Shown here piece after piece: positions 17,008 through 59,479 of a stretch of 62,337 nt of DNA. The notes beneath the pieces were generated by a model. That model was not told where the DNA came from, searched no databases, and saw nothing but the letters and a program-made list of their open reading frames with translations. Made by a program: the position numbers and the translations under genes. Position 1 is the first letter of the stretch. Every line of letters begins with the position of its first letter. The stretch spans positions 1 to 62,337 of the forward strand of contig JAUCBJ010005100.1 of NCBI GenBank assembly GCA_032718475.1, read 5' to 3'. This DNA comes from Nemertoderma westbladi (Eukaryota; Animalia; Xenacoelomorpha).

Positions 17008-17049
17008 AACCCAAACCCCTAACCGAGAGAGGCCAAACCCGTGGAGGTT

Positions 17050-17468: not shown

Positions 17469-17559
17469 GTAATAGATTTCCAGCTGCCCGAAACTGAACT
17501 CTGAACTGAAGTAATAGATTCCAACAGCCCGAACTGACTGCTAGCCACCAAGAGAAAGG

Positions 17560-22043: not shown

Positions 22044-22254
22044 GAGATTTAGTCGTCCAATATTTTGGACTGAGGGGGGTGGGAATGAGGGCGAGACGCC
22101 CTTCCCACAAAAATAATTATTTAATTTAAATAAACAATAATAAATAATTAAATAATTAAAAATAATAGTTAGTAGAAGTAAGAAGTAGTAAGGTAGAAGT
22201 ATAGTAGGTTAGAAGGCGGCAGAGTATAGGGAGTGTGGTATAAACATACCACGG

Positions 22255-27900: not shown

Positions 27901-28442
27901 GTATTCTAGACGAGACGGACGTTTTGCGTGAGACTGGCTTCAAGGCCACGCCGTTAGCCGAAAAGACGCGTCACCCACAGGATGATCCACAACTTCGTAT
28001 ACTTAGAGCCCAGAAGGCCGGACAAGAGATAAAGAAGGTAGTAAATGTCGCTGAGAGGACGACATCGAAGTCGCAAATCCGGATGACTCGAGGCACGGTT
28101 TCCATCGCTAGAGAACCGCGCGGAGGGACAGGATTCGCTTTGCCAGAACCCATTAGAATTCAGACGACGTCAGAGAGCGAGGTGTCTGCGGACGGAACAG
28201 TCCCACCCTTTCGACTTCCTCCCAGCATTGTGGAGACTCGATCCGATGTTAAGCCAACAATTGGAATCGGACGAGGATTTAGAGGACTGAGCGCACGACG
28301 GATGTGCGAAACTCCCGTCGTCCCCTTTCCTAGCATTTTGGAACCACCGACAGCTCGACACCGAAGTCCGAGTCCAGTTCGATCCCGACCACCACCCAAT
28401 CGTATTAGAGGGCGTAGACTAACCTGTTCGACCAAGGAATAG
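24973..28442 (+). pseudogene. Element B extra 3' ORF: Cys/His N-domain, DEDDy-exonuclease-like domain, 3 CCHC knuckles and a conserved C-domain (frameshifted)
   Basis: Pieces 24973, 25077, 26365 and 26799 align end to end with D 43302-45804 (GMHLYRR.RG.D.ET..FS.YKLFYKCG.CM.KQD; VDT..LLLWA; LQYYL..ES; KPIGDLIYER-like; GFWAV.P; TWNF). Confidence 0.8.
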
Positions 28443-29227
28443 GAGAGCAAGATGAAGAAAGGAAGGCTTGCGAGCCTACCGATTGGATATTTATATTTGA
28501 ATATTATATTTGGATGTTATATTGGATATTTTATTTGGATATTTATATTTGATATTTATATTTTGGAATTTATATTGAACATTGGTTTTGGAGGAGCGAG
28601 ATAGAGAATGAAGGCTTGCGAGCCTACTGTTAGCAATTAGTGCTCAGGAGAAGATATCTAGACCAGTAGGACGAACTATTGAGCTCGTCAGGAGGACACT
28701 TAAAGACTTATTTGAAAGTTATTAGCGCATTATGTTTATTCTATATTTAAGATTGATTTAATTTGGTAAATTTATTATGTATATTTGCAATATATGAAGA
28801 ATTATTGAAAGCTTGAAATTATTTGTTTTGATTTGTTCTGATTTGTTTAATTTGCTTATCTTGATAACCGAAAGCTTTTTTTTGTATTTTATGCACTAAA
28901 GTTAATTGGTAAATTTGTATTTTGTATGTATAATAGATTGTATTTACACCGTACCTGCAATATTAAGTATGCAATAATTAGGTAGTGATTATTTTATATT
29001 TTAGGCCCCACCAGTAGATTTAGAAGTATTTTGTAAATAGTTTATATTTCGATTGGTGAAAACAGTCTTACTTACTGTTTTCATGGAGCGGTGATGGATT
29101 ATTTCACTATAAGATAGCATTTGTAGTTTAACGTAAAAACTTTCTAAAATCCGACGCATTTTGATTAAGTTACAGTAATGCAATATGCCTATTCATATTG
29201 GTACACATAAAACCCGTAGGTAATCTC

Positions 29228-30753: not shown

Positions 30754-33541
30754 AAATTTTGATTGTTTAAATATTCTCACATTCACACATTCCGTTAGGG
30801 AACCCCAGTATTTGCGATTAGATTAGATTAGAAAAGACGTAATTATTAGCGCGTTTTAACAGTAAGATTAGATCGTAAGAATACACTCTGAGTGTAAAGC
30901 CTCTCACACTCGTCTTAAGTAAGCTTAGGAAGCCGATTCGGGTTTATTGTTTTGGTTATTCCCGCGTGGCTCATATATTCGAACAGTTAGCTTTCTATCG
31001 AGCGATCGGTAGAGAAAGGAACAAGCGATTAGCAGGAGCCGTAGAAATTTAGTAAAATATATTAGCGGACGGCAGGCGAGCGCCATCCAACGGTGAGTAG
31101 CAGTTTTGTATTTAGCAGCCCTACATTAGTAATAACACGCTCCTGATTACCCCTGTTTAATAGTAGAGCAGTCTTTGTGTCTTTATTGGTTAGGCAGAGA
31201 CCCGCTAGTTTAACAGTGAAGCACAGGTATTTGCCTGTTTAGCGGTTCTGCAGTTAGTACAGGGGTAGGTTGTTTAACAGTGAAGCACGTGATACTTGCT
31301 GTTGCTTGCAACAGTAAAGAGTGTATTCAGAGTTAGATTACTGTATTCACTAGTCGCATGCAGTAGTACAGTAGTGCATTAGGCTGATTGCTGTTACTGC
31401 GTACGGTAGAAAAGACATTTGTTTGGCTGTACCACATACAGTATTCATTAGGCTGTTAGGTTAGTGTACTGTTTTACTTACTGTACTGCGTACAGTGGAT
31501 GTACGGTAGTGCGTTTACTAATCGCAAATACAGCAGTTCATTAGGCCGTTAGGGCACGCTGTAATTAGTAAGTTTTTTGAAAATTTTAGCTAGGTTTGTG
31601 AGAATTCAGTTTTGGTCAAAATTATTTGTAATAAAATCTAGAGTTTTGTACCGGTATGTTAGATAACCGCTTAGTTGTTTTATACCATCTGGAGATACAT
31701 GGCAAGACGGAGCTTCTGAGTTTGGGGTTCGTGTGGGTCTGCGGGTTCGGTTTGCAATCAGTGAAGAGCCTGAAACTTTGGACGCGGGCGTGGAATCTCA
31801 CAGCAAACAAGGTTAGTTGTTCTGTTGGCACCATTGTGTTTGTGGAAGCAGTAAAAAATTACCGGTTGTTTAATTGCGAAGCTGAACACAATTTATTAGC
31901 TAGGTTAGTTAGGTTTAGCCGACCATGGTTTTTTGAATCGCTCAAGTTAGAGAGAGAGAGAGAGAGAGTCGCAACCCGAAGGTGTAGCCACGTGCTAGTG
32001 GATACATATAATATGTGAAATTAAAATTGCGTTGATTAGAGCTATATATGTAAAATTAGAAATATTTGGGTGGCAAGTTCATTTTTGAATATTTTGAATT
32101 AGATTCAGAAATTATTTTGTGTCATACCGGTATTTAAATGCTATATAATAGCTATAGAATAATATTTTTGTTTAAATATTGTACTGGTATTTGTAAAAGC
32201 TTTTGCGGATCTAGCTAGTTATTTTCCCCGCAAAGTACTCTGTAGGTGTTTTAGCGGACATAAAAAGCCGTTTCCTTACTGTACAGGTGATTTAGTGGAC
32301 ATAAAAAGCCATTTCTTCTGTATGTGTACTTTAGCAGACATAACTAGCGATTTTATGTCGCAATACGCCAAAATACTCTTGATACAGTGCAGTTCAGATG
32401 ACAACATCTATCAGCTGATATGTACATGTGTAACTTTTTCTTTGTTCGGTCGACCAATCAGAGCGATTTTCATTTTATTTGTACAGAAACCTCCGGGAAA
32501 TTGCGCAATGCATTATGGTTTATGTTTACCTTTTTTCCTGATGCCAGAACATCGGCTGTGGAATTATTCTGTGTTTCAGACTTTAGCCAAACATTAGAAC
32601 AGCTTTGATTATAGAAACGTATAACTGTTATCATATTGTTACAATCCATATTGTCATATTGTCAAACCAGATCACATACAAACACCGCATTATTTTACTG
32701 CTATTTACTGTCGGTTATTAATTGTTAGAAGTTGATGGAATGTTGTTATATTTGGAGAATATCGATAAATAACCATAAAACCCCAATCTTCTTGATATAC
32801 TGAAGGTTAGAGAGACCGGTTACATATAGCAATTGCGACTTACATTATAGTGGTTTTGGAGTGAATTGAATGCTGTTTCATAGGCCCTACATGTGTCGGT
32901 TGCTGTTCTCCTTATATATGATTTAAATTAGTGAAGGTCGGCAGATCAGTGTGCAGCAGTGTGCGGTAGTGTGCACGAGTGTGACAGATAACAAAGCATT
33001 TCCTAAAGAATGCGCCTTATACGTAAATCATTAGCCATCCCGTTGTGTTTAGTGTAAGTCATAACTCTGTTTACATACTTAGAGCGCCACGTCCTAAAGG
33101 AACTGTTAATATTTCCCGAAAGTGAATAATATTTGTCAGAGATTATATTAACGATCAGTCGAATAATACAGTAGGCCTACACCGCAATAAGGTCAGAGCT
33201 TCCGAATCCAGTCTCCCGGGTAAATCCAGTGGATGAATGGTCGCGCATAGGCTGGCTTCGGCTAATGTAGTTTTATGCGTATCAAATACTTGTCATAGGC
33301 TAAAGTCGATTTATAACCTAGAAGACACCTAAATTTGGCAGATTAAACTGCTAAACAGCGAACAGTGGCGAACAGTATTTGCTATAACTGTATCCTATTA
33401 AATTCACAATATTGCATTGCGAATTTATTTTGACATTTTTGGACCAACTAATTATTTGACAAATAATTTAATCATATTTTCGATTAAATATATCTCGAAT
33501 TTTTGCGAGATTTTGGCCGGAAGGCAAATATTATTTAGACT

Positions 33542-36500
33542 ATGAGTGTCTCAGAGAAGGAGGCACTAGAGGACAGCTATGAGACGGCGGCTGGACCGCC
33601 GACTGACGATAGCGTTAATATTACTGTTGACGACAATGCCGACTATGACGACGCAGCGAGCGACGCTGACGTAAGTGAACAGGAGGACGAGACAGTAACT
33701 AGTGAGGAAGAGCAAGCAGAGGTAATAGTATTAGGATCCCCTACCACTACTGTAAGGAAGGATTGTACAGCAGCCCGACCGGAGGTGAGTGATAGGGAAA
33801 GTAGTGTAGCAGAAGCGAGAGCCCGGAGCGCGGTTGCCAGACCTGTGGGTATGGTAAGTGCCGTGGTCCCACCGGCTAAAAGGAGTACCCGTTGTTCCCG
33901 AAATAATCCTTCAAGTCCACCGAGTGTGAGTCAGGAAAGCGAGAGAGAACTAGACACCGCGATAAAGGAGAAACTTCGCGCGCATGCCGGACATATAACT
34001 CGGACGGCGGACAAGGTAAGGAAGATGTTAGCCGACTCAGCAAACATCGGAAGGGAAGGGTTAGTAGAGATTAGAAAAGGATACAATTCAGCATTATTCA
34101 AGCAGATGGAGGAGCTTGCAGTCCTAGCGAAGAGAGCAGTGGAGTCTCAGTCAAGCGACGTGGCGACGAGAATTTACGACAGGGTTTTAGCAGCCTTGTT
34201 GGAGCACCACACATTATCAGAGCGATTTCGACGAGTTAGGACGGAGAACTGGTTGCTATGAGCATCACAAGCGCAGGCGACTCAGATGAGAGGCGCAGAG
34301 TTGAGAAACTTAGTGGAGCGGGAAGAGACGCAGGATAAGGAAGAGCGCAGGTATCAGAGGGAAGTTACCAGCTGGCTGATGCAGAGTGGAGTGGTGGTAC
34401 CGGGCCAGGTGCTGCCGACGACGGACAATATCCAACAGAGAAGGTTAACTCCACCCGACGACGCATCTAGAGAAGGTGGCGATTCCCAGGTTAGTCATGC
34501 GCGAGGGAAGGTTATATGTGCTAGATCCCTTGTTTCTCACAACTCGGTGGAGGAGAGAAGACACCGACTGAACGAACAACAGGCGGAAATTTTGCGTGCA
34601 TCGGAAGAAAAGAAGGAAGCCGAGTGGGAACAGGAGTGCACACGGAAGTTAGACGCAAAGTTGCGAGAGTTGGAAGAAATAAGTAAGCGTGAGCAAGCGG
34701 AACGCGAACGGAAGGAACGCGAACTCCAACTTGAACGCAAACAGAATGAACGCGAACTCCAACTTGAACGTGAACAGAAGGAACGCGAACGGAAGGAACG
34801 CGAACTCGAGATTGAGAAGGAGCGAAGGGCATTGTATGAAGAGAAGGCGCGTGTGGAAGAAGAGAGTGCAGCGAGACGAGCGAGGGAAGAAGAAGAACGT
34901 AAACTGGCACAGTTGGAAAGTGCGAGACTAAACTTAGAGAGCGAAGAACGGACCAGGAAGGCGAATGAAATCGCCGAGAAGGGGATGCGAATGATCGAAG
35001 AATGTGGGGCGAGTGTAGGTACTGAGTTGCGAGAACTGTTCGCACTACAGAAGGCCGAACAGGAAGCGAGAACTCCGACTATACGCGAGTCGACGACGAC
35101 CAGAATTCCTATACCCGGTCCAGCTATTACGAGTACTCGGATCGCTAAACCGTTCTCTACATATCGCACACCAGTTGGTATTAGTGCTTCTACTACTAGG
35201 ATCGGCATGCTGCATTGCAGCTGCATTTTTAAGAATGCTGTGCCGGCTTGTCAACAAAATTGCACCGCCACAACTCCCTATCACCCATGACATTTGCTAG
35301 ATCATCCGCATCTTTAAGGCCAGTGTCCTTTAAGATGCGTCTCAAGAAAGTCATGGGCTGTCCACCATGCTTATTCACTCCATGAGGCTGCCAAAGTACA
35401 AGATTATGCACTGGCTGGTCCTCATGGCGAAAGCAATGTCCTGCAAAGCGGAGGCGATTTTGTTCTAGTGTCAAGCTTGGGGGAACCAATGAGAAACCTC
35501 CAATGTTATATAGTGTCTGGTTGGAGATGTGTGCATTGTACTTGACACAATGTACCCGGCGTAGCATTCTTGTGAATGTGCCATCCAGAGATTTGGTGTC
35601 CTCAGCAGTTAGAGCCCAGCATGGACTCCCGTAGAGGAGTACTGGAACTACTGCTGCTCTAAATAATCGGACCTTAAGTTTCCGATTAATTCTAGGTGAC
35701 TTCCAAATCCTGGAAAGCCTATTCAAGGCTGCCCATGCCTTTCCCTTACGTATTCGAAGGTCCTCACCTGACTTCCGGATCCATGATCCCAGGTAACAGA
35801 AGTCGTCCACATGCTCAAGCATACCATCCTTTGAGCTTATGCTCATCCGATCAGAGACTTGCTGAGGACTTTCAAAGTTAACTGTCAGAATTTTGTCATT
35901 AGTGCTTCACCCATCGCGCAAGATCCATGTCATCAGGACACTGCACCACTACATACCGAACGTGACAACGAAGAGTTTAGAGGAGAAACTCCGACGGGCC
36001 GAGTATTGCGCGAACCGCGGGCAAACCCGCGGGTTTGGAATACGCGGACGGAGCGCCGACCCAGTTCGACGGAGAACTTCCGGGTTAAACCGGAAGAGGG
36101 ATCATATGAGAGACAGCGGATTACTCAGATAGAGCCAACAATACAACAGAACCCTAGCCAGGAATTTATTACGAGGGATGAGTTAAGTGCTAGTTTAGCA
36201 CAAGCTATATCGCCGCACATCCAACCTATAATGGACATGCTTAGTAACCTACAGTTAAAGGAAGCAGCCCAGGTAAGAAGTAATTCTAATCCTAGCAGGC
36301 CTGAGTTATTTTAAGTCCAACCTAGTCAACGAGTACACATATCGGAGGCAACTATACCACATAGACCTCAGGTAAGAATGCCTGTCCCTACGATACATAA
36401 TCCCAACTTCGAGAATTCGGCGGAAAGATTTATACAGGATGCTTGAGTCAGGGCTTCGGCGCGTAAACCAACGCGAGCGCTGAGAACTGATACTGACTCA

Positions 36501-37616
36501 AGCGATGAAGAGGAAGACATGAGACGTCAGAAGTCCCGAAACTATAAGGAAAGAAGGACCGACGCGGAGCAGGTAAGTTTCAATCCCCGGGAAAGGACCA
36601 GACTTAATAAGCCTGCAGAACTAAACCATTTGTTAACCTGGAACGACGCAACCCTTAGAGACATAGGTAAGTTTGCCGCTAGGCAAGGACTGCCGGCGCA
36701 ACAACCCCAGAAGTTTATGGGCAACCATAAACATTGGAGGACTTTCAAAACCTATGTCGACGAACAGCTGACCAACAGCACCTTTACTCCCAATGAGAAG
36801 TTCAACTATTTGCTTCAAATGCTCCATCGAGAATCTAGAGCCATTGCTGACAACTTCGTCGGCAATGAAAGAGCATTTGAGTTGGCAATGAAGACGCTTA
36901 GCGACATCTACGGGAATAAAACCAAGATGGCACAGTCGATAGTGGAAGACTTGGGTAAGGGCGGAAGGATTACAACTCTGCTGTTGAACTTAGCGAACGC
37001 TATTTCGAACGCATTAGACATCTTGAGGACGGTGAATCTACCTCATCATGGTGATCACGCCGAAGTTTTGAAGAGCATAATAAGACGTTTAAACATGCGT
37101 TACCGACAGAAATGGCGCAAATTAGAGAATAAGTTGGAGAGCCAAGGTAAAGTATTGACACTTCAACATATTCATGACATGATAGCCACAGACACAGTAG
37201 CAGAGATGAAGTCAAACTTCTCAGAGGAGAATATGAGAGAGTCTAAACCTGTTACCGGTAAGTCTATGGTAAGTTTTGACGATGACAGGACCACTGTGAC
37301 TTATAACTCAGTAGACAGATATAATTCGAGTACCCCTGCCTTTAGATCAGACTCGCGAGTATGGTCAGGTGAGCAGTCCGATAGACCTAAGTTAAAGCAA
37401 CAGGAGTTGCCGGATGGATTTGTAGGTTGCCAATTCTGTTTACTAAAGGAGGTAAGATCTGACGACCATAAGTTAGACAGTTGCAGACGGTTCAAAGAAT
37501 TAACTTCGGAACAGAGAAGAGTTCAAGTGCGGACGTTGGACACCTGTTGGGCATGTCTTGCGCCAGGTCATGTACGGCGGCAGTGCCCGAACAGCAAGGA
37601 CGGATGCATGGAATGA
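33542..37616 (+). pseudogene. gag: Element D gag (disrupted by stops and an RTE insertion)
   Basis: Has an E/R coiled coil, PQKFMGNHKHWRTF..EKFNYL, and the knuckles CQFC..HKLDSC and CWACLAPGHVRRQC. Confidence 0.85.
35191..35897 (-). mobile_element. 5'-truncated RTE-type LINE (707 bp) with an 11-bp TSD and (TAG)n tail
   Basis: TSD ATTAGTGCTTC at 35180-35190 and 35898-35908. The ORF reads VDDFCYLGSWI..KAWAALNRLSRIWKS..KVRLFRAAV.PVLLYG..W.LT..LDG..RMLR..RLRFAGHC.R, an RTE-like RT C-terminus. Confidence 0.92.
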
Positions 37617-37634
37617 GGCAGACTACATCACAAG

Positions 37635-40600
37635 TTGCTACATGCGGTTTTCCATACCCCAACGGACCGTTACTTACAGAGAAATCCTCAAAGGAAGGGG
37701 AGCAGAGAACCTGTATCGATAAGGAGAAATACGTACACCGGCATTCAGGATGATGGTTACCAACCAGATTCGTCAGACAAGGATGGCGAGTCGAGCGCGA
37801 GAGAAGTGACCTGCCAAGGTTTCACCGCGGATAGTTCATCGACCAGCGCGCGGACGTATTTATCATCGGCCACGTCGGAAATATTTAGCGTGATTCCGGT
37901 GAAACTTACTGGGGATAAGGGATCGAAGAGAATATATGTGATGTTGGACACTGCGTCCACACTATCGTATATAGACGAGGAAGTGGCGAGAGCCGTTTCC
38001 AGCTTCCAGGACACAGAGGAGATCCATATAGAGTTAAAGTTTATGCACGGGGTAGGGAACCTCAAGGGACACAGAATTTCGGTAGAACTAGACTCCCTAC
38101 TTCCAAGAGACCAGCACACTCGACAAGAACGGAGAGCTTTGCCATTGGACGGATTTAAGTGTCTAGCTATGAAGGGGTTTGGCAGGCAGTTAGGTAAGGG
38201 GCCACCGATGAGTCCCATAGTACAGGAATATTTTGACAAGCTCAGAATACCAAGACACCAGGTAGGTTATAGGAATGTTTCTATGTTGATTGGTGCAGAA
38301 CAGCTGATCGCACACCAGATATGGGAAATGAGACAAGCTGAGCCGCATGTAAATGGACCACATGCCCATAGGACTATATTAGGTTGGTATACAAGAGTAC
38401 CCATGTCTTATGAGTTTACAGGTGGCGAAAAGCCAATGGATAGATACAACGGATTACAGCCTATAACTGAACCACCATTAGTAGAACCACCAGACATAGA
38501 CGAGTTTAGGAGAACCTGTATTGACCACTATAGTGACATTAGCGAGTCGGACGAAGAGTTGATTCCCGATAATGTTAGGTTGTCGGAACCACTCTACAAT
38601 GACCGGACAGATAGTGAACCCGAGGACTACTGTTATCAGACCCGTGGGTCTGGTTCAGCACCCCACGCTACCTACTTGAGTAACGTTTTGACTTATACCG
38701 ATATAGTGGAGGGTCAAGTGGCTAAATATCGAGACCTAGCATTTTCCAATACAGTGAGGAGGAATTGCAGAAGGAATTGATATGCCAGGACCTCGAGACA
38801 GGAGCCAGAACCGTCGAATGGCTGGATAGGGACGCAATGGAACCCGGTGGATATGACCTAGCCATGTCCGCTGATGAGAAACGGTCGCTGGAGATGATGG
38901 AAGATACCATACGTCTGCTACTGACTGGACATTTTGAAGTTGGAATGTTGTGGCGTCGACAACCTCCTAAGTTGGAGAACAACTACAACTTGGCCTTGAA
39001 AAGATTGAACGGAGTAAGGGCTCGGTTGCTAAAGAATCCAGACGTTAGGGAGAAGTATTGCGCCCAGATCAACAACTATTTTGCCAAGGGATTTGCTGGG
39101 AAGGTAGAGGACCCGGACTTAGTGACAGACCAGACTTATTACCTCCCACACCACTATGTGACTCACCCTGACAAGCCAGACAAAGTCCGAGTAGTCAACG
39201 ACTGCGCAGCAGTCTATAGAGGTATGTCCCTGAATTCAGAGCTGATGGACGGTCCCAACCTGAATAATTATTTGATAGGAATACTGTTGCGTTTTAGACA
39301 GTGGTGATTCGCGTTTACTTGCGACATCGAGGCGATGTTCCACCAGGTAAGAGCCTGTAAGGCAGACCAGGATAGTCTTCGATTTCTCTGGTTTGAGAAT
39401 AAAGACCTATCCGGCCCAGTGGTTACATACCAAATGTATGTTAGGATATTCGGTGCCCGCGATAGTCCAAACGGCACGCTGTTTGTTCTAAAGAAAACGG
39501 CAACAGCCCAGATTGGTAAGTATCCAGTAGAAGTTATCGAGTCTATATTGAGAAACTTCTATATGGACGACGGATTGGTGTCCAAGGACACAGTGGAAAA
39601 AGCCATAGAAGTGGCTCACGGCCTACAGAAGTGCTTGGCAACAGGGGGTTTTCCTCTGACCAAGTTCACTACTAACTCGGAGGCCCTATTAGAATCGTTC
39701 CCGGTGAAAGATTGCGGGAGCGGAGACATAGAATTGGGGGTAGAACCCATTCCCATTCCCATTCCCATGGAATCCGAACACGGACAAGTTCCAGGTAAGA
39801 GTTAGATTTGAGCCCAGTAGTCCAGACAAAGTTTTGACAAAGAGAATTTGCTTATCAACATTAAGTAGACTATTTGACCCGATGAACTTTATCAGTCCGG
39901 TAATATTACAGGCACGAGCGTGCATGAGGAAAATTTTTTTGTCCGACTTAGAGTGGGACGAACCAATATCCCCTATACATGCAAAGCAGTGGAGAGAGTG
40001 GGAAGCCAAGTTGCATCTATTAAAAAACATAGATGTACCCCGCTCCTACTTTCCGAATCAGCTGGTGTTTCCAGCTGATTTAGAGCTCCATCTGTTCAGT
40101 GACACAAGTGACACTGGCTTTGGTATGGTAGCCTACCTTCGCCGAGAGGTAAGTCAAGACAAGTTTGAGATGGCCTTTGTGACTTCTAGATCAAAGACAA
40201 TGCCGGTCAAATACATGACTGTCCCTCGTGCAGAGTTGCAGGCAGAAGTAGTTTCAGTCGAGGTAAGTAAGCAGATAATAGAGGAGTTAGACACGACATT
40301 GACCTTATTCTATTGGACGGACGCATCCTTAGTGTTAGTATACATTGCAGCCGACAATATTGCACTAAAGACATTTGTGGCCAACAGACGCGCTCAGATC
40401 GTCGACTTTTCGACGAAGGAACAATGGAGACATTGTCCGGGAGTGTTAAACCCGGCCGACATAACTTCGAGAGGTGCTATGCCGGTGGAGTTCTGTCAGG
40501 AAGAGTCCCAGGAGTTTTGGTTGCATGGACCTGATTTTCTAACGAGGACACAGGAACATTGGCCAGAGCAACTGAAGATAGTGACCAATCCGATGCCAGA

Positions 40601-42524
40601 GGATGCAGAAGTCAAAGTGGAGAAAGTCTCTAAGTCAAAGTCGAAAGCCAAACTCCAGTTATTGGAGCGGCCTGAAGAGTCATTGGAGCGGCCTGAAGAG
40701 TCATTGGAGCGGCCCGGAGACCTGTCAGACCTACAGACTTACGTGACTACTAGGTCAGGAAGGGTAAGTTATGACATAAAACCACCCTTACAGACTACAC
40801 AAGAGTCACAATTGGTAAGTGACGGACAGAAAATGACCGACACAATGGAGCCTTTGGTTTCCAAACCTGCGGGTTTGGATTCGAAACTTCCATTAACTAG
40901 CGGACGACCGTCGCTGGCATTAGAGCCATGTAGTATTTATGACAAATTACTAAATTCGTCTGCCTCTTGGCTGACAATTTGTAAAAGAACTGCATGGTTA
41001 AGCCGATACGTTTCGTACCTTTGTTTAAAACATTCGAAACATTTAGGAGAACAAATGAGCGCTAATAGTGAGCGAATTCAGAAATTGAAACAACCTCTGA
41101 CAGAGGATGAGATTGATCAAGCGGAATTAAAGCATTTGAAACATTATCAAATGTGTGCCTTCCCCAAAGAATTCTATCTATTATCGGCTCAATGACCAGT
41201 TCTCTACAAACCCCTTAGAAAATGGAGTCCATTAATCCATAAGGGTTTGATTTGTCATAGATCAAGAATCCAGACTGTCGACATAAACTCACAGTTTAGG
41301 TTCCCAGTGATAATCCCTAGTCACCCAATAGAATTGCAAAGAGCGATTCTATGGGATATACACAAGAGGTTGCATCACGCGGGAAAGTTACACTGTTTGT
41401 CGGCAGAGAGACAGCGATTCATTCTATTGCAGCCAAGCAGGGCAGTGGGTACCATGTACGACGCCTGTCTGGTTTGCAAGAGAGTGAACGCCAGAGTATT
41501 GGAACAGGAGATGGCTGAACTCCCAGAAGCGAGAGTGCAGGCATATGACCCACCCTTTACAAATACAGGGGTAGATTGTTTTGGTCCGATTGAGGCAAAG
41601 AGTGGACGGCTGACCCATAAACGATGGGGCCTGCTACTGATATGCATGGCCAGTAGAGCCATACATATCGAGCGTGTGGCAGACAAGTCGACCAAATCTC
41701 TGCTCCTGGCCTTAAAGAGATTTATGGCCAGGAGAGGACTAGTAAAGGGGTTTTACTACGACAAGGGTACAAACTTTGTCAGAGGGAATAGCGAGTTAAA
41801 CGCGGCTCACAAACCAGCGCAAAATAGAGAAATTTCTGCAGCACTTTTGCCGCAAAGAGTAGAGTGGAGATTCAACACTCCAGAAAGTCCTTGGATAGGA
41901 GGAAGTTGGGAGTGTTTGGTTCGTTCCATAAAGCAGGCCATTGCTAAGACATTGCCTGTAAACAAACAACTTACCGACGACGAGCTGGTCACAGCTTTCA
42001 TCGAAATCGAGCATACGCTAAACTCGAGGCCGATAGCTATGTTGCCAGACGGTGTTGCATTAACGCCGAATCATTTGCTAATGCAGAGTCCAGCATTTCT
42101 TGTGCCGGCATCAGAACCCATTAGTGCCGACCTATACAGTCGTAAGAGCTTGAAAATAACTCAATTTGTTGCGTACACATTCTGGGAATATTGGCGGGAA
42201 TACTATCTTCCCACCATATCCACCAGATCAAAGTGGTACAAAACGGTTCGGAGCCTCCAAAGAGGAGACTACGTATTGATAACCGAACCAATTGTCAAGA
42301 GAAAATACTGGGAGACTGGAGTTATCTTGCACATACACCCAGACGTGCAAAATATAGTGCACACAGTCACTGTGAAAATTAGGTGCAAGTGTCCGCACCC
42401 AATGAAGTGTAAAACTAATGGTTTACACACCTTGGACCGACCGGTCCAAGATATCGGGTTATTAGAGGAGACACGCATCGAGACAGGAGATTATAATTTG
42501 TCTCCTGCCTCAAACAAAAATTAG
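37635..42524 (+). pseudogene. pol: Element D pol (PR, RT, RNase H, IN) with several stops and frameshifts
   Basis: MLDTAS protease; YYLPHH and FYMDD RT; LFSDTS and YWTDA RNase H; H..LHHAG..C..C, TGVDCFGP, DKGTNF, GGSWECLV, LNSRP and LTPNHLL integrase. Confidence 0.93.
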
Positions 42525-43301
42525 TGTTAGACGCAACTCACTTCGTGTGCATTCCTCGTATGCAAATACTAGGAAATGCACAGGAGCGGGTTTGCGGTGA
42601 TTTGCGTTGAGAATTTGTCTGGTGGGTATCAAAAACAAAATTTTATTTCAAAATTTTTCGAAAATTAAAAAATTTTAAAAATTAGAAGTGAACCCAAGAC
42701 AATTCCAAACGCTGTGTATAGACGCGTTTTAGAATTCGTCTATAGAGATACAGTAATTTGAGAAAAGTCGTGAAGCCTTGAAAATAGCATTTAGAAACCA
42801 TGGTGACGGCTATATTACATAGGAGTGTAAATTGAGTTTAGCAACTTCCACAGATTGGTGCCAACAGTACAACAACCAAGGTGCTAAAGGTTAGTAGCAC
42901 CAGAGGCGTACACGGACCCAACTCAGTAGTTTGCAATGAAGTGAGATGTTCGATTATCAAACCTGTGGGTTTGGTATTGTAGAGCGTTGAGACTATTGTC
43001 GTTTCTAACTACTGTAGTTTAGTACGAGTAATGGGAGTAGTTTGGGCATCAAAAAGTGAGTTGGTCACGGCCAGTTTATCTCCAAAGTTTTGCGCTATGC
43101 ATGGGAATAGGTTAGAGGATAGTTAGGAATGAGACGGGATCTAGAGAGTCGAACCTGAACTGCTGGAAGGCAGCTGGGGGGAGGGGGGGGGGGGTTCGGG
43201 AGGTCTGTCCTTCGGCGACATCTAACTGATTTACCCACAGTGTAATTAGCTACGTAACGGAACCTATTGGGATATATATATATGTATATACGCGGCTTAT
43301 A

Positions 43302-45955
43302 ATGGAGAAGGAAATTAGAGCTCAACCGCGGAGAGGATTTACTGCCAGAGAGGAGGCGGAACTACCATTTGCCCGACTGGGATGTAAAGACTCGAATGTT
43401 TACTACCATGGGAGGTCGGTAATGGAACTGAATGGGAAGTATAAACCCGAAAGAATGAGAGCGTTGAGACCGCATGAAAGAATGGGACCGTATGGAAGTT
43501 TTGCGGAAGGAGTATCGCACTCGGTATCCTTGCGATTTTGCGTTAGACGTATGCGACATTAGTGCAGACCCGGACGAGTAGATCGCACGGCTGTACCATA
43601 TGAACATGTATTTACGACACGACAAACCTCTACCTGCAGTCCGCGATCAGTTCGACGGAATGCATCTGTACCGGAGGACTCGAGGCGAGGATCAAGAGAC
43701 GTCAAAGGTCTTCAGTGTATACAAGTTGTTCTACAAATGTGGTGAATGCATGAATAAACAAGACGTGGCGATTCCCGATCGACTGGACGAGCAACATCCT
43801 GAACCGATATTAACGCGATGTCAAGCTCACCAGTTCCTTAGATACAACGAGGGAGGTTACCCAATGAGCAACCCGATGATCAGTATCGACTTCAGCGGAA
43901 AGCGACCTCCAAGACCCATTATGCCGACCATTACGACATTAAGATCCGTATACGGAGATTAAACCCTGTTCGACACCCAGTTTGATAGAGACGGCAGTGG
44001 CCATTTCGCTATACCGAGCCTATAAGGACCTAGAGGCGCGGCGTGAAGCGGCACGGGACTCGGGTACCAAACCCGCGGGTTTGGAGCTCTCGAGTCCCAT
44101 AATAAAGACACAATATCGGAAGGGGAAGGATCCTAGGGAACAGATTTTGGAGGTATGCAGGCGAGGAGGTATGCACGGAGCGGAGCGTATCGACGCCAGG
44201 ATGCTACCCAAGAAGGTTAGAGAGGCGATTCTCAACCAAGATTACGTCAAGGTGGGATCGGGAGTCCAGAGCGATTTGGAGAGTGACTTCAACGCCATGA
44301 CTGATTTGGAGGACAGATTGCCAAGACTGTTTGTTGACACCAAGCTATTGTTGCTATGGGCACAGGATATGGGAATTTATAGGGAGTATCCCAACTCTGC
44401 CAAGACTGGTATGGGCTTCATAGCGCATTTGTTGTATAATTGGGACTTCAAGTTGAAGACGCAGAAGAAATACGAGGAGGCGTATGGTGAATGTAACACG
44501 CCACCGGGAGCGGAGTTCAAATCCCACTTCAAGCGGCAAGCGTTAGTGTATTGGAACATTTGCGCGCCACCCCGTGCGTCACTACAATATTATTTGGTGC
44601 TTGAGTCGAACACGGTAACTTGTTTATTAGCGGATTTCGTTGCGCGAGTTTTGAAGCGTCATCCATTGGTATTCGGAGGAGATCAATACGTTCGCTCGAA
44701 AGGGGGAATCCAATCCGACGTTATGAAGCATTTCTTAACCCCGTTCTTCAACCAATTGTTAGAGAATACGTTGATGGTTAGGAGAGGATTAGCCATATTC
44801 GAAGGAATATATCGACAGAACATCGGAGATTTGGGAGACCGACCGTCGATGGAGTATCTGACGCCAGAGGCCTTGGAGAAGTGGTTCGGGAATCAAACCC
44901 GCGGGTTTGGTACTCTCTTCCACTCGGAGGCTGATAGACCTGTTAGAGAGGGTTGGCCGGAGACGTTAGTAGAGGTGTTCGAGTGGATCTTCCGGTGGAG
45001 AAGACATATCCGAAACGAACGCGGGAGGAAATATTGGAGATAGAGGACAAGGGCAAGGATGTTTACTTTGTTCCGGATCGACAACCTCTGACCGGAGAGG
45101 ACGACATCGTATTAGACATTGGGAAAGAAGGAAGTGCGAAACCGATTGGAGACCTCATATATGAGAGGGCCTGGTTTCCACAAGCGCGTAGGTGCAAGTT
45201 GTGCGGCAGCACAAGGCACAATCAAAAATCGTGCAACGCGGTAGTAGATAAGGTCTGCCGTTGGTGCAATGAGACCGACCATTCATTTCATACGTGCACC
45301 GTCTTCATTTCTCAATGCGGATATTGTGGGGTAAAGGGACATCGTAGCCCGAGATGCCAACTGCGAGATGATTCCTTCCAAAACCATAGCGCTAACCTAC
45401 TTCGAGAGATGCTAGATAAGTGGGAGGGTGTGGCCGATTACCACATCCAAGCGCAGATGCGTTGGTTACCGTTTAAAGCAGGATACGGGTTTTGGGCAGT
45501 AGACCCATCACACGTTGCGTATGAGCCGTATCTGCAGTCGTTACCACAATATCAGGAGCTAATACTGACCGCTCAAGATCTTCCGCAGAACACTGGAGTC
45601 ATCGTTGTTCGGGAATACTTCAGACAATTAAACATGGATAACAAATACACTTGGAACTTTGTTGCTATTTGCGACCGCATAACGAAAGGTCTATTTTCGG
45701 AAACTAGAAAGGTGGTGCGCGCGCGAGGAGATTGGAGGATGGCGGCTATACAATATCGCCGAGTTCCTATTGACTCACGTACTGGTGGGGTCATTGACCG
45801 CTGAGAGGATAAAGGAACAGCGAATCGCAGCGCCCACAGCGACAACCGTTGGAGCTCAAGGCTCGCGGAGAGAACCAGGAGGAGAGGTCCAAGACAAGTG
45901 TCAAGTCAAGGACGACCACTACCACTCAATACCTAAAGAGGTGAGGTCTCTATAG
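43302..45955 (+). pseudogene. Element D extra 3' ORF: DEDDy/WRN-like exonuclease fold plus 3 CCHC knuckles (frameshifted)
   Basis: LPKKVREAILNQDYVKVGSGVQSD..FVDTK..KTGMGFIAHLLYNWDFK..W....LQYYLVLES, then the knuckles CKLCGSTRHNQKSC, CRWCNETDHSFHTC and CGYCGVKGHRSPRC. Confidence 0.8.
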
Positions 45956-47874
45956 GGGTGTTGAGAACAGGCGGCGGCAGACTCGTGAGGGTCTGGGGGC
46001 ACGTTAAATTTGGTATATAGTGCAAGGGAGTCACTGAAGGCCCTTGTGTCTGACGAACCATGAATCAACATGGTGCCGTGGTTCTGTCTAGTCGGCATGT
46101 TGCCGTACTGCCAGTCCTGTATACAGTAGGGGTGGTGGCATGGCGTGATTTGTGGTTCATGTGGTGTGAACTGTGTTTTGTGTGTGGGCGAGCAGTGGCA
46201 GTTTGCTTGGGGCTTGGATGGGTTCTTTTGGCCATCAGCTGTTCCGTTTTTTTGATACTATATGTTATTGTCTCCATGTTCAGCTGATTGGTCTTTGGGA
46301 TTTGTTTGGGTCTTTGAGTTTTCTGTTGCTGTGGGGACGTGAGTACACGTGATTGTGTGTATGGCCACTGCGAGTGAGTGTGGGAAACCTTGCCAGTTGG
46401 CTCAGTCACCACTGGTATTAGTAGGACCATATTTTACTGCACCCCAGCATACTTTGTGCACACAAAGTTATTTTGCCCTGACGGTAAAATAAAGTACTCT
46501 CGACTCTCATGTTCTCTCTAGTCGATACAACTATTCCCTCTCGATTTTTGACCCCGATTTTGTCTTTACCGATTATGTCCTCTGTGTGTGCATGATATGT
46601 GTTCGATTTTGTGCTTACCGTTGTGTACTTGATATTGTGAACATCTGTTGAGTACACATGTACAGTGACTGGTAAGTGTTTACTTGTTCAGTAGCTTTTG
46701 AGCTACAGACAGTATTGTTTTTTCAATACTGCCGGCGAGGCAGGTGAAAACGAGTCAAAATTCCATGTTGGGTAGTGCAAGCCCACATGGGACAAGACCG
46801 TCGGTTAGGCCCAAGAGCGACCTTGGTGCTCGATTGCTATCGACTGGCCCACCTGCCCGTTGACTCTCTGAGTTGGCTCAATCTACAGTCAGGACACAGT
46901 AAGTTGACAGTAGCCGCCCATCTGGCTACACGTTCGACGAGCTGTGCCGGTGTGATCGGGGAATTGAAAATTGAACCCGGGAAGCATCTTGCCACCCCCC
47001 GGCCCGGTCTGATAATAACATCAGTTGGACTGGCCCCAGGGGTGGTGGAAAAGCGTCCGCCTCGTGGGTGCGCCTCGGGGAGGAGCCCAGAAGGACGTAA
47101 GCGGCAGCGCAAGGCGCAAGGTGCATCGGAGAAAGCTCGGGTGCAATTGCAGAAGGAAGAGTTGGCGGAAGCGACCACAGGAGCACGACAATTGGGACGA
47201 GGCCGAGGGAGAAGCACGAGCCGGGATTCGGTCGGGGCTCAGGGAACATCGTCGCCGGTTCCGGGGAGTGACGCCTCGCGGACAACGTCAACAGAGTCGA
47301 CGGGAGGACGATTAGTGTATCTGGGAAGGGGGCGGAAGAGAGGAGCGAGCCCGAAGAACCCAGGAGCGGGTCGGTAATGCATTCGTATCATGGAGTGACA
47401 GACTCTAGATATATACATCATCGTCGCTCTGATGTATATTGTAGCATTTGTAAACATTTGACTGGACTCATATACACTAGTCGCATCGATTTGAATTTAT
47501 GTTATGAGAGAGGCGAAGGAGGTGATTGGGGAGACAAACCTGCGGGTTTGGCTTACTCCTTTCATCTACCCTAGCAAGTTTTATAAAGAAAGTCATATTT
47601 TGTAAATTTAATTTGTAAGTAGTAATCATTATGTAGAACGAATGAGAAAGCAGTATTTTTGTAAATTTAATTTGTATGTAATAATCGTTAACATTGAAGG
47701 AGATAATATTTCGTAAATTTAATTTGTATGGTAATGTATTAATTATAATGTCTTCGGATTGTCTCCGGCTTGGCCTACTTACAATGGACTGTACGAGTTC
47801 TAACTTGCCTAATACAATTCTGCCTGTGTCTGGTTTAATAGCAAGTTTGCTCGATCCTTCTCTCTCTCGCCCTC

Positions 47875-52949: not shown

Positions 52950-54503
52950 CTATCTGTTCCTCTGGAGATAGTTCCCTCTGGCGTCCTCTTCCCTGGGTCG
53001 TTTCTTGGTTACTACCGCTCCTCTGGTATCCGCTTTCTGCTTTCGGACTTTCGCCGCCACCTCCCTACTGATCCCGGTTGTTGGCTCCTTGGGCGCTGGT
53101 GTTATTAGTGCCCGATATCGCTTCGCCGGTGGCCCCTCAGAGTGGCCCTGTTCTCTCCCTCTGGTGGCGTCCCATAGGATCATCTTCATTGCTCGCGGCA
53201 CGTGCTCCGCCAAGAAATCCCTAAACTCCCCTCGGTTCTGTGGCGTCCACCTGTCCAAATATCTTTGCGTATTCATCACTCCGGCATACGACGCCGCCGT
53301 TGCTACCTCTTGATAGGTAAACGGTAGCCTCCGCTTTATGATTTCCATGTGAGCCTCCTGATTGATAAGGAAGAAACCCCACTTGAACTCCTGGGCCTTC
53401 ATGCGCTGGCGCGTCATGGCTCCGACGTCGGCCCACTCCTCGAATCTTCTGAACTTCTCTTCGTCGTCCATCCAGTCGCACTGGCGTCCGTAGCGTCCTC
53501 GAAAGTTGCACTTCGGACATCGGTTATGCAACCGTGGACACGCCCCCATCCTGTGGCTCGACTCGCGGCAGTAGAGACAAAAGGTTCCCTTTTGGAACCG
53601 GTACAAACAGCTCCTTTCCTGGTGGGTCTGTCTCCCACAGTAGTCGCAACCGAGTACCAATGTCTCCCGCCCCACGTCGTCTTTCGTCCCAAGCGATCTC
53701 CGCGGTCTGTGGAGTCGCTGGTAGGCGAACTTCTGCACGTTGGTGTCCCTGTCTACGTCGATCTCTCCGCCCCTCTCGTCTCCCCGAATACTACCCGTGG
53801 TGCCGTCCCCGGTTGCTCGCCCAACCTGATAGTGCTCCCCGCGAAATCCATCGCCGGCTCCTCGTGCACCCAGGTCCGCTTGCCGGATCTGTCCCAGAAG
53901 GCCCTCGCCCCACTGGCCGTCACCACCCTCCCGCCAACCCAGTCCGTGTCCGAGTGGCCTATCCTCTCGATGGGCGGCACCTCTCCGAACCCGTCGTCGT
54001 CCTCGTCCTCCTCTCGCAGTGGTTCCAACCCCGGTATCCTGGTGGACCCACTATGTCCCTTCCCACCTTGGTTCTTGCCCGTAACTCTCCATTCCTCAAG
54101 CTCCCCTAGCCTCCTTTACGGTTGGTCGCCCTCGGCGCCCACTGGTATGGGCATCGCTTGCAATCCCGACGTCGACTGTTTCGGTGATCCCACCGTCCAC
54201 CCCAGTTCTTTCCCTAGAGACTCCCCCGAACTCCCTGACAAAGCCCAACGAAGTTCGTCTAAGGCTGCTTGTTCCTCTAAGCCGTAGCTCTGCGCCCTAG
54301 CTTCCTCCTCCCTCTCCTCTGCTTCTCTCCTCTCTCACAAGTTTGCCTGCCATCTCGAACTCTGCCCGATCGCTCACCCGTAGGGGGTGCCTTGCCAAGG
54401 CACAAACGTGATGAGTGATGGGTTTAGGTGGTTTAAGTTCAGTTCGATGGCCTATCTCTTTCTGAATTTCTGAGTTATTGCCTATTCTTACTACTGTTAC
54501 CAT
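52950..54503 (-). pseudogene. Element C extra 3' ORF: 3 CCHC-type knuckles plus FEEWAD..T..R..WGF domain (frameshifted, no exonuclease-like part)
   Basis: CDYCGRQTHQERSC, CLYCRESSHRMGAC and CPKCNFRGRYGRQC, then FRRFEEWADVGAMTRQRMKAQEFKWGFF. Confidence 0.7.
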
Positions 54504-55338: not shown

Positions 55339-58300
55339 CTAAGGTGCCCCTTCTAACAGACAGCATTTCCCTACAGCTCTCCTGTAGGTTTTTCTGTCCT
55401 TTGCACCTATCTTACCACCTATCTGCACTTCTACCGATCGGACTCTTCCGTCCTCATCGGAGTAAGTGCCTACAACTCTCGCCAACCGCCACTGGTTGTT
55501 GATGATAGTATCATCCGTAACGATTACGAGATCTCCATCTCTTAACTCCCTATTCGGCTTCCTCCACTTGCTTCTTTTATGGAGCGTGGGTAGGTATTCT
55601 TCTACCCACCTCCTCCAATACTCTGCGCTTATTGCTTTAGTGACTTTCCAACTCTGGCGGGAGTGTATGTCATCTGGTTCTACACCCCGCATATCGATGG
55701 TCGCTGGCCTTTCCATCAGAAAGTGGCTAGGCGTCAGCACGTCTAGTGACTCAGGGTCATCATTCTCCGGATATAGCGGTCTGCTATTAATGATCCCCTC
55801 GCACTTCGCAAGCACTGTCCGTAAGACGTCCTCAGTGACCATGTGGTTGTTCATTAGCTTCGTCATTAGACGCTTTGAACTGCCCACCAGTCTCTCGACG
55901 CATCCTAGTGTATGTGGTGCATACGGCATCCTTCTCTCCCACTTTACTTGTCGTCGTCTCATGCCCGCCCTGACTTCCTCCCCTTCCAAGATGTCCAAGG
56001 CCTCTGCCATCTCATTCTCTGCGCCCACAAAGTTGGTGCCGTTGTCGCTGTATATCACTGCGATCGTCCCACCTTTGCGGTCTCTAAACCTTTCTAATGC
56101 ATTAATGAATGCTGATGCGGTTGCATCTTGGGCGAGTTCTATCCCTACCGCCCGCGTGTTGTTACATATGAAGATGATACCGTAGCGTTTCTCCGTGTGC
56201 CGCATCACCTTGATCTTTATCGGCCCGAACATGTCCACACCGCAATGCGTAAATGGCGGGTCGTGCTGTCTTACTCTACTCGCTGGTAGTGGCGCCATCT
56301 CTTGTATGGCTCGCTCCTTCTTCGCTCGTCGGCAGGTCTGGCACTGCCCCACTACCGCTTTCACCTTCTTCCTCAACTGTTTGACCCAAAAGGTCCTCCT
56401 TATCTCCGTGAGAGTTCTGTTGGTGCCCCCGTGCAATATCGACTTATGGGAGTCCCAGATAATCTGGTGAACTATTGGCGATCCTGTTGGAATGATGATG
56501 GGTATCGGTGGTACGATTATGCTGTTGTTGTATCCCACCCTAGAATTCATTACTAGAATTCCGTCGTCATTAAGTTGTGGTGACAGCGTGATCAGCTCGC
56601 TGTCCCGTCGAAGGTGCTGTTGGTTACCGACGCGTTCCACCTCGTCGCCATAGTTCTTCCGTTGTTCATAGCGGATGACTGCCTTGGCCGCTCCTTCCAG
56701 ATCTATGGATGTCCTGATCTTCTTGTCTTTGCCGACTCCCGCGAGGAAATTCCCGAAGGCTCTCCAGTACGCCACTAATTTCTTGGTCTTATACCAACTA
56801 GAACTGTAGCTGAGGAGTTTATCCGTCGGGTTATCGCATAGTTCTTGTTTTGGTTGCACGTCCCTAATCTCCCTCACCATCTGGGAGTATATCTCTTCTC
56901 CCTCTGAATCTCCCTCTTCTCCCTCTGACACTACTTCTGAGCCCGGGTCCACCTTTCTCATCGGCGGCCAGGCCTCCTTATCGCTCAGAAATTGTGGCCC
57001 GTGTTGCCACAATCCTTCCCTTTTTAAGAAAGTGTGGCGTGCCACGCCCCGTGATAACAAGTCCGCTGGGTTCTCATCCATTGGGCAGTTGTGCCACCTT
57101 TCCAATTCTGTGGTCGCCCTTATCTCGTCCACCCTATTTGCGACGAATATTGGGTATCTCGTCCTTTCGTTATGTAGCCAACCAAGCACTACCATGGAGT
57201 CCGTCCAGTAGTGTGTCTCCACTATGTTGGGAATAGTATCCACTAGGTAGGCTGTGGCTCTAACTCCTAGTCTCGCAGCTGTCAATTCTAACTTGGGAAC
57301 TGATGCTGAATCTGGCGGCGTTGACTTTACTTTGCTAAAGGCCAGTCTGGGCTTGTGAGCCCCCTCTCGTTGTACTAAATAGAGTGCCGCTCCGTACGCC
57401 TCCAACGACGCATCGGAGAACATGTGTAGGTCCAGATTCGTCATGTTCCCATCCGGGAAATACACTCGTGGCATGTTGTATGTTCCCATCTTCTCCAAAT
57501 CTCCTGTCCACTTACTCCACTGTTTCTTGATTTCCTCTGGTACCTCTATGTCCCACTCATCCTTCAATTTGTATACTCTCTTGAGTATCTGTTTCCCCGT
57601 GACTAATAATGGGGATGCTAGGCCTAGGGGATCGTATATCCTTGCTATATATGATACATAGCCCCTCTTCGTGTGGATGTCTGCGCCCTCCTGGCTCTGC
57701 TGATACTTCAGTTCGTCTGTCTCCCTGTTCCACACAATTCCCAATGCCTTCTGTTGAGATTCTGTTCTCTTGTTCGCCATGTCTTGCCCTTTGGCTGTTG
57801 TGGGATTATCCATGGTCGATTCTGGTCTCTTGTCCTCTATCGCCTTGATAAATTCTTCCAAACTGGATTGGAATTTGGTCAGGTTAAAGCCGGATCCTTT
57901 TAGGATGTCGCGAACCTCGTGCCCTGTGTCCAGTATCTCCTTAACCGTATTTTGTTGACAAGCCGGCACAGCATTCTTAAAAATGCAGCTGCAATGCAGC
58001 ATGCCGATCCTAGTAGTAACCGTATTTCCAGACTCCATTCCATCGTCTACGTAGAAGCCGCGTCGAATCATATCGACGGCCCTAGTGCTGTATCTATCTT
58101 CCTTCCCCTTCACTGAATCTCTCACTGCCATAGTCGTCGTAAATGAAGACGACTTGGCTCCCATGTTTTGTACTACCATCTTATATGCCGGTATTATCGA
58201 CGGTTCTTCCTCGCCGTTATACCATAAGAAGCGTTGACTGTCGCTATCTTCCTCTGTTACGCGGACTTGGTTGAACATGCCTTCTATGTCACACGTGAAG

Positions 58301-59479
58301 GCGTGTTTCCCATTTCTAAATCTAAGTAGGACCTCTATGCCCGAGTTGTATATGTTTGGACCTTCTAACAGATAGTCGTTTAAGCATTTTCCGTTGGTCT
58401 TTGCTGATGCGTCAACTACCATCCGCAGTTTACCTTTCTTTGGGTCTAAAGCCACGTGCGAGTGGCAGGTAATATGTCCTGTCCGTGTTCGGTTCGTCGA
58501 CCGGTAACTCCACGGCCCACCCTTTCTCGACGTACTTCTTAATCGTTCTGTGGATGTACTCATTCTTCTCGGGGCTCCGTTTTAGTGTTTGTTTCAGCTT
58601 GCGGAGTCTCGTGAGTACCATCCCTCTATTATCGGGCAGTGGTATCTTCGGTAGTTTCCATACCATTCCTATGGTGTACCGCCCCTCGTCGCACTTCATA
58701 GACTCCTCCACGCTTTGTAAAGCCTGCTTGTCTTCTACCGAGGTCCCGACCCCGGTCTCTTTCAGTCCCTCGAAATCTTGTCTGAGCAGTCTTTTAAGCT
58801 GCTCCTCTGCTCCCTCATCACCCATTTCCTGCATTGTTCCCGCGAACATGCATCCTGATGTCTCCGACATCCTAAATGGTATCTTGCTCTTGATTGGGCC
58901 ACTCAGCGTCCACCCGAATGGTGTTAATATCGCCACCGGGTCACACTGCTTGTCTTCGCCGAAGACCGTTTGCATTCTTTCGTGGGCCGTTGGGCAGTCC
59001 ATTCCTACTATGATGGATACCTTCCTAACGTCCACATCTGGGATTGAGAAGTCAATGTCGTCCAGGAATTTATATTGCTCGACCTCGATGTTGGTTGGCC
59101 GCCTGGCATTGATATTAATTGACTCTATCACTTGGATGGGGTCGATGGTTGCCCCATAGTCGCATCCCGGTGCCACCGCTGCAATTGCGCACCGTCCGGT
59201 TCTCATCTCCAGGATCTCATCTTTGCTAGAGATGGTTGTTACCGCCATTCTGCTTGGCCTCGTTCTCAATCCTATCTCTTCGGCCACCCATTCCTCGACT
59301 AATGTGAAGGCAGCTCCACTATCAACCAGCATTAGTGTTGTTACTGATCGATTGCCTTCTCCAATCACTCGCACGGGTACTACTCCAAGTAACACCGTTC
59401 CTCTCTTCTTCGCCCCTACGTGCTCGTTGCCATCGTTTGGCCTCTCCTTTGACCGAACTTTACCGGCTTCTCCTTGCAT
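55339..59479 (-). CDS. pol: Element C pol (PR-RT-RNase H-IN), one frameshift near 58450
   Basis: LVDSGA; KLRMVVDAS..DIEGMF..FYVDD; MFSDAS..YWTDS; H..ILHGG..C..C, CGVDMFGP, SDNGTNF, INSRPL and LTPSHFL. Confidence 0.93.
57953..58016 (+). mobile_element. Minimal RTE-type LINE 3' tail insertion with an 11-bp TSD
   Basis: TSD TAACCGTATTT at 57942-57952 and 58017-58027. The insert matches the reverse complement of ~35192-35256 and ends in TAGTAG. Confidence 0.92.

Follow-up and report, generated by a model that had tools for sequence, protein, structure and literature searches.

A non-env third gene of BEL/Pao retroelements in Nemertoderma westbladi with a predicted DEDDy exonuclease domain and three zinc knuckles

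The question raised by this locus is what the long reading frame after pol encodes in BEL/Pao elements of Nemertoderma westbladi, and whether it belongs to the elements that carry it. A reading made without database searches (hereafter the sequence-only reading) had proposed, at 43302..45955, a third gene with an exonuclease fold fused to triple zinc knuckles. The window analysed herein, that is the whole stretch of 62,337 nucleotides (contig JAUCBJ010005100.1, assembly GCA_032718475.1), is a nest of retroelements, of which B, C, D and E are all BEL/Pao by Pfam domains, with BEL-type Gag/Pol domains in the order PR-RT-RH-IN (integrase domains in D and E). The frame after pol is called ORF3.

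12.4-28.6 kb, plus strand: element B, BEL/Pao (DUF1759 and Peptidase_A17, Pfam)
12447..17045, plus strand: gag, RT and RNase H of element B, integrase core absent (Pfam)
17046..24146, plus strand: element C, a relative of E inserted in B (its 423-bp terminal repeats agree at 98.6%)
24973..28442, plus strand: ORF3 of element B in five frame pieces (N-domain, C-terminal half of the predicted exonuclease, three knuckles, C-domain, low-complexity tail)
33.5-47.5 kb, plus strand: element D, BEL/Pao (DUF1759, Peptidase_A17, Integrase_H2C2, DUF5641, Pfam)
33539..42524, plus strand: gag-pol of element D (DUF1759 Gag, knuckle, PR, RT, Pao RNase H, IN)
43302..45804, plus strand: ORF3 of element D, decayed (in four frame pieces, with an in-frame stop and an internal deletion)
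51.7-62.3 kb, minus strand: element E, BEL/Pao (DUF1759, Peptidase_A17, Integrase_H2C2, DUF5641, Pfam)
52950..54050, minus strand: ORF3 remnant of element E (knuckles, the third degenerate, and C-domain; tblastn with the homolog P0002, E 1e-18)
55339..60621, minus strand: gag and pol of element E (Pfam)

The gag-pol of D is interrupted by stops and frameshifts; no LTR pair around D was found within the window, where another element truncates the 3' end of D near 47.5 kb, and no tRNA genes were found in the window. Element C is related to E (78% identical at the DNA level over 2.9 kb) and has lost internal sequence, and this C/E family carries tandem repeats between pol and ORF3 (54697-55165 in E, 42/35 bp; 22294-22938 in C, 44-69 bp). 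The stretch 47477-52027 belongs to a different element; it has tandem repeats of 21 bp, and RT-like motifs lie in a frame of 1103 codons (48473-51784) that gave no Pfam match at E 0.1. This element may be of the non-LTR kind. A 70-bp stretch, 100% identical and inverted between D gag (35191-35260) and E pol (57949-58018), adjoins a non-LTR RT fragment (35229-35906, minus strand) and is probably a small recent insertion. Tandem arrays of 22-24/47 bp at 1297-2215 are in an inverted, foldback-like arrangement.

At the position after pol, homologous ORF3 sequences were identified in B, in D and, for the knuckle part, in E. The long frame that the sequence-only reading had placed downstream of IN in both B and D is thus homologous between the two, but it is broken into four pieces in D and five in B, and in B it does not follow IN: the integrase core was lost at the insertion of element C (17046-24146), after which pol restarts with only about 30 C-terminal codons. 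The start ATG at 43302 of D is homologous to the ATG at 24973 of B (pairwise E 4e-7), and the D frame carries an in-frame stop at 43579-43581. The two ORF3s share 43-56% amino-acid identity and are alignable as proteins over most of their length, with DNA alignable over only 202 bp at 70%, in good agreement with the divergence described earlier; by tblastx, identity is 58% over 137 codons in the N-terminal domain, 40-63% in the middle and 41-50% in the knuckle and C-terminal part. The 3' limit had to be revised. Since the last frame piece of D (45805-45955) has no similarity to B, an ORF3 reaching to 45955 was dropped, and the frame is supported as far as the stop at 45802-45804, at or before which the conserved part ends.

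The remnant in E, overlooked by the sequence-only reading as was the N-terminal domain, links a knuckle-bearing ORF3 to BEL pol in a further copy, but without nuclease: no similarity to the N-domain or to the exonuclease part was found in the E copy.

Neither a signal-like nor a TM segment was found in ORF3, the maximum 19-residue Kyte-Doolittle mean being 1.27 for the D pieces and 1.48 for the B pieces (best value at the D N-terminus, 0.43), and no fusogen family matched in Pfam. ORF3 thus has neither the signal peptide nor the TM anchor of an env-like protein, as had been stated before. It is an element-borne, non-env third gene of these BEL/Pao elements.

Alternatively, ORF3 might have been passively captured from the host and be decaying without a role in the element, and every copy in the window is indeed broken; the gag and pol that accompany it are, however, broken to the same extent. 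The B-D substitution comparison proposed in the sequence-only reading gave saturated synonymous sites in every gene (pS 0.76-0.84, ungapped segments; 0.76-0.81 in ORF3) and a pN in ORF3 of 0.35 for the N-domain, 0.38 for the exonuclease part and 0.42 for the knuckle/C-domain (range 0.32-0.42), against 0.37 for gag, 0.31 for RT and 0.32 for RH. The segments for pS and pN were picked for their similarity, a choice biased towards conserved parts to the same extent in every gene. By this measure the constraint on ORF3 between the families is equal to that on gag and pol, and the substitution pattern is that of a gene under purifying selection.

Within family D, we used as sibling copies the contigs from public sequencing runs of the same organism (runs X1 and X2 being one sample). 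Divergent D copies are many, with 8939, 6238 and 4312 contigs on 40.5-47.5 kb in X1-X3, and they cover 30/30 bins of this interval, pol and ORF3 alike; the contigs are short and none spans pol and ORF3, so that the pol-ORF3 linkage beyond the window is inferred. The list of differences in the exonuclease frame has 15 entries; the siblings are polymorphic at 13 of them, and 12 of these 13 are synonymous against 34% expected (p 2e-5, the sites being non-independent). Together with the constraint between families, this synonymous excess largely refutes passive capture, which we hold to be very improbable. At two of the places where the frame of D switches, sibling contigs and the window copy are unequal in length, and the frame breaks of D therefore look copy-specific. 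In some sibling contigs the sequence passes directly from about 45.9 kb to about 47.1 kb (45842-47141), that is, part of the D family is without 1.2-1.3 kb of the 3' region.

Three conserved parts of ORF3 lie outside its middle.

43489..43962, plus strand: N-terminal domain of D, C-x2-C-x23-C-x2-H (58-63% identity to B 25167-25577)
45193..45357, plus strand: three tandem CCHC zinc knuckles of D (starts 45193, 45256 and 45316)
27288, 27363 and 27426, plus strand: three CCHC knuckles of B (by motif)
53648-53232, minus strand: knuckle-bearing stretch of the E remnant, third knuckle degenerate
45358..45804, plus strand: conserved C-terminal domain, W..(A)....R....(W/G)GF, common to B, D, E and P0002

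The triple knuckles reported earlier are present in D as well as in B. A profile of four knuckle sequences matched the knuckles of Lin28, Air2 and T. brucei RNase D (E 2e-4 to 6e-4); the homolog search with the D knuckle piece gave 0/103. The N-terminal domain is the best-conserved part of ORF3 (63% identity between B and D), is missing from P0002 and E, and gave no match in Pfam, NCBIfam, PHROG or PDB.

For the middle part, the motifs quoted in the sequence-only reading were located at 44204-44608 of D.

44204..44680, plus strand: predicted exonuclease-fold core of D (ExoII Asp 44273, DT motif 44333, ExoIII Tyr 44591 and Glu 44603)

It might be argued that there is no exonuclease fold here, the likeness of the motifs being convergent and ORF3 being another kind of knuckle protein. 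The ORF3 pieces of the window gave no exonuclease match in Pfam, NCBIfam, PHROGs or PDB, nor did sequence and profile searches of PDB with the exonuclease part; against a DEDDy profile, an HMM of 15 RNase D/PolA-exo sequences, the hhalign probability was 0.2% for D alone and 0.7% for D plus B, below significance. AlphaFold gave no usable model (pLDDT 34 for the exonuclease part and 41 for the N-domain), a low confidence that we attribute to too little alignment depth. On ESM Atlas the D piece reached only fungal clusters without a name, below the recognition threshold, and its homolog search at longer lengths gave 0/2818 candidates.

The fold is predicted in two steps by way of one homolog. 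Among 1.84 billion representatives, phmmer gave two matches, P0002 (E 1.6e-4) and P0001, the latter a helicase-associated repeat protein rejected as a chance match, so that P0002, a protein of 648 aa, is the sole true match. The D core is 26% identical to P0002 over 162 aa (z 27 against shuffles), and P0002 carries its domains in the order of ORF3, i.e., exonuclease, three CCHC knuckles and C-domain. The homology is independently confirmed by the knuckles and C-domain, which are shared in order though absent from the query, and in tblastn P0002 matched element E (E 1e-18) and element D (E 2e-6). P0002 in turn was connected to the DEDDy family by three methods: Pfam PF01612 at E 0.2; ESM Atlas, with PF01612 in 25 of 30 matches; and hhalign, in which residues 25-262 aligned to the 15-sequence profile with 89% probability (E 2e-6), the 125 co-linear columns taking in ExoI, ExoII and the DT motif. 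The 100 column-shuffled controls gave at most 2.3% and a score of at most 20.9, against 40.5-44.6 without shuffling. In hmmsearch with the same DEDDy HMM, P0002 ranked first among 486 targets. The fold proposed earlier is thereby supported indirectly, through P0002, and is not recovered from the window pieces alone. The common domain order and the D-P0002 score, together with the agreement of the three methods, make the absence of an exonuclease fold improbable, and ORF3 is accordingly predicted to carry a DEDDy/DnaQ-like domain in its middle.

P0002 is a singleton, its own homolog search having returned only itself among 7996 scored. No relatives were found in viral contigs and metagenome contigs, tblastn of plasmids and phages with P0002 gave only rows at E 6-10, and a viral-contig locus (L001), which matched over 11 residues of a phage protein, was rejected as due to chance.

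Is the predicted nuclease active? The sequence-only reading had taken it as possibly catalytically altered, ExoI being missing and ExoIII reading YxxxE. The latter was confirmed in D and in B (26682/26694) and is shared by P0002, i.e., the canonical Y-x3-D is replaced and the last ExoIII position is acidic in 3/3 sequences. As to ExoI, a different cause was found.

44096..44098, plus strand: internal-deletion breakpoint in D, where ExoI would lie (sibling-contig loose ends; anchor spacing)

Sibling contigs of 4/4 runs stop at 44096-44098, and in each of the three DNA runs they do so from either side (loose ends of 9, 13, 6 and 1 contigs behind 44098 in the four runs, and of 4, 4 and 3 before 44096); 0/26 pieces listed bridge this point, and in two of them 309 and about 451 bases are left without a match. 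The spacing from the hairpin (described below) to EDRLP is 240 bp in D against 655 bp in B. Loose ends and anchor spacing together indicate that copy D has lost roughly 0.4-0.5 kb internally, immediately before the LP..VREAIL motif, and the absence of ExoI from D is therefore uninformative about the family. In B the frame is open at 25701-26432 but this stretch aligns to nothing (z about 0) and gave no supported ExoI match, and ExoII of B is for this reason unrecognisable too; ExoI candidates picked by eye and a tandem-exonuclease reading of the stretch were both rejected for want of alignment support. P0002 carries D62-x-E64 (ExoI), D130 (ExoII) and Y229-x3-E233 (ExoIII). D130 and the D residue at 44273 align with the ExoII Asp of RNase D, and the register of Y229/E233 on the Tyr/Asp of RNase D is weak (P 0.004). 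The acidic set D-E-D-(Y)-E is predicted on this basis for ORF3, and the argument from a missing ExoI no longer holds.

These observations bear on the view that ORF3 is a catalytically dead exonuclease-fold adaptor of the EXD1, Egalitarian or Exuperantia kind, with the element RNA as its cargo to be chaperoned, localised or packaged. The Asp-to-Glu change at ExoIII in all three sequences, the unrecognisable ExoI-ExoII region of B despite its open frame, and the presence of multiple nucleic-acid-binding modules in a single protein would fit such an adaptor, and EXD1 and Maelstrom are cited as inactive DEDD derivatives in the accessible text of PMC5408684. P0002, however, retains all four acidic positions and the Tyr, and D retains the ExoII Asp and the ExoIII Tyr and Glu. 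Dead DEDD members usually lose the catalytic acids. We consider the dead adaptor unlikely, though deserving of serious attention.

A possible RNA target of ORF3 came from short palindromes repeated within the elements.

12884..28625, plus strand: B-family hairpin AGGCT-YGCR-AGCCT, 8 sites (12884, 13945, 14038, 24594, 25746, 27007, 28464 and 28612)
36023..47549, plus strand: D-family hairpin AAACC-YGYG-GGTTT, 6 sites (36023, 40863, 42959, 44069, 44895 and 47536), with a variant at about 38638

Each is a family-specific 14-bp palindrome with a YGYR core, found in coding and non-coding parts and in all three frames, and confined to its own element, with none in C or E. The 8 sites in B compare with 0 in 100 shuffles, and the 6 sites in D with at most 2 strand-matches in 100 shuffles. 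Their places correspond between B and D, with one hairpin before the ORF3 start (379 bp in B, 343 bp in D) and one after EDRLP (606 and 586 bp). Of nine copies folded, eight form a hairpin with a 4-base loop, the stems being lengthened by differing flanks and G-U pairs, which fits hairpins of the sense-strand RNA. The hairpin at 44069 showed no sibling difference of at least 10% among those listed. They may resemble the stable UNCG/YNMG loops and the packaging loops bound by retroviral knuckles. A link between hairpins and ORF3 is proposed as a hypothesis from their co-occurrence in 2/3 families.

The same motifs could be read at the level of DNA, with the N-terminal Cys/His domain of ORF3 binding CGCG-core palindromes in the integrated element as an anti-silencing factor of the VANC type. 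They are family-specific, dispersed, palindromic and CpG-containing, occupy matching places in B and D, and are absent from C/E, whose ORF3 is without the N-domain; TE proteins with family-specific targets have a precedent (PMC5735166, accessible text). The extension of the stems by different flanks with G-U pairs and the single sense-strand polarity are, on the other hand, RNA-like, knuckles bind single strands, the N-domain has no DNA-binding match, and the families number only three. Little weight is thus given to this DNA-level alternative.

Taken together, we favour, with about even confidence, the reading that ORF3 is a cytoplasmic RNA-binding protein with a likely active, metal-binding DEDDy exonuclease fed by three knuckles in a manner analogous to trypanosome RNase D (TbRND), and it is likely an accessory tool for RNA handling. 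The knuckles, the N-terminal Cys/His domain or both would take hold of single-stranded RNA. The RNA so bound would most likely be that of the element itself, at its repeated tetraloop hairpins, and the nuclease would trim 3' ends in the particle, be it of the element RNA, the primer or bound host small RNAs, such trimming helping the element to replicate inside the cell. In E, where the knuckles occur without nuclease and without hairpins, the nuclease appears dispensable or lost. A more elaborate form, in which ORF3 serves as a self-recognition kit that reads the hairpins of its own family while a DEDE-type exonuclease strips or trims host piRNA/siRNA guides, i.e., a sequence-specific counter-silencing nuclease encoded by an animal retrotransposon, is doubtful in our estimation. 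An ORF3 that did counter small-RNA silencing would count among the rare enzymes that a transposon directs at the piRNA pathway.

The closest known systems are the Juno/Vesta LTR elements and Terminons of bdelloid rotifers, in which Rodriguez, Kenefick and Arkhipova described, in the accessible text of PMC5408684, a DEDDy (DEED) ORF3 that is RNase D/WRN-like, with proposed roles in 3'-end processing or silencing; the account is repeated in the available portions of reviews (PMC5718144, PMC6431247, PMC6338049). The elements of the window likewise carry after pol a non-env ORF3, with a predicted DEDDy-type domain. Juno and Vesta, however, are not BEL/Pao, and the accessible text of PMC5408684 contains no discussion of BEL/Pao; the rotifer motif is DEED whereas the window ORF3 is predicted to read DED-E (ExoII Asp, ExoIII Glu), and no knuckle fusion, N-domain or C-domain is described there for the rotifer ORF3, a comparison made by description. 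The novelty supposed in the sequence-only reading is thereby narrowed: a DEDDy ORF3 of LTR elements had been published, and what stands is that no exonuclease ORF in BEL/Pao was found in the searchable literature, which excludes most subscription papers, Repbase, Dfam and supplements (PMC3118150 comes with element sequences that could be relevant to this negative).

In TbRND, a DEDD exonuclease is combined with four CCHC knuckles that bind ssRNA and raise cleavage (PDB 7C42; PMC7797062, accessible text). ORF3 has the same order of (predicted) exonuclease and tandem CCHC, and 7c42 was its top knuckle match (E 6e-4), but TbRND, as described there, is a cellular mitochondrial enzyme with four knuckles, a canonical DEDD set and a short linker; since 7c42 matched the knuckles only, with no PDB match to the exonuclease domain, the likeness is treated as an analogy. 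The Dada DNA transposons of Laccaria and Ectocarpus also carry a transposon-borne DEDDy domain, which according to the accessible part of PMC3706591 lies, unlike that of ORF3, inside a DDE transposase of a DNA transposon and keeps the four canonical residues. The VANC proteins of Arabidopsis VANDAL are, like ORF3, accessory TE proteins with family-specific cis motifs, and according to the accessible text of PMC5735166 they belong to a DNA transposon, recognise tandem-repeat targets and have shown DNA binding and demethylation, whereas ORF3 and its motifs are known from sequence. Within Belpaoviridae, the third gene is only env-like in the ICTV profile (PMC8742986), and only env-like third genes are mentioned in the accessible text of a BEL/Pao survey (PMC3118150) and of PMC13524379; ORF3 shares this slot after pol but is without signal peptide, TM anchor or fusogen likeness. 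On this prediction, the slot can be occupied by a protein of RNA processing in place of env, and captured DEDDy exonucleases are extended to a further LTR superfamily. The combination of nuclease, knuckles and family-specific hairpins makes the question of ORF3 function, raised with the rotifer elements, testable in terms of substrate, cis target and catalytic need. DEDDy ORF3 cargo was already known from other LTR elements; its BEL/Pao host and its multi-domain form are apparently new.
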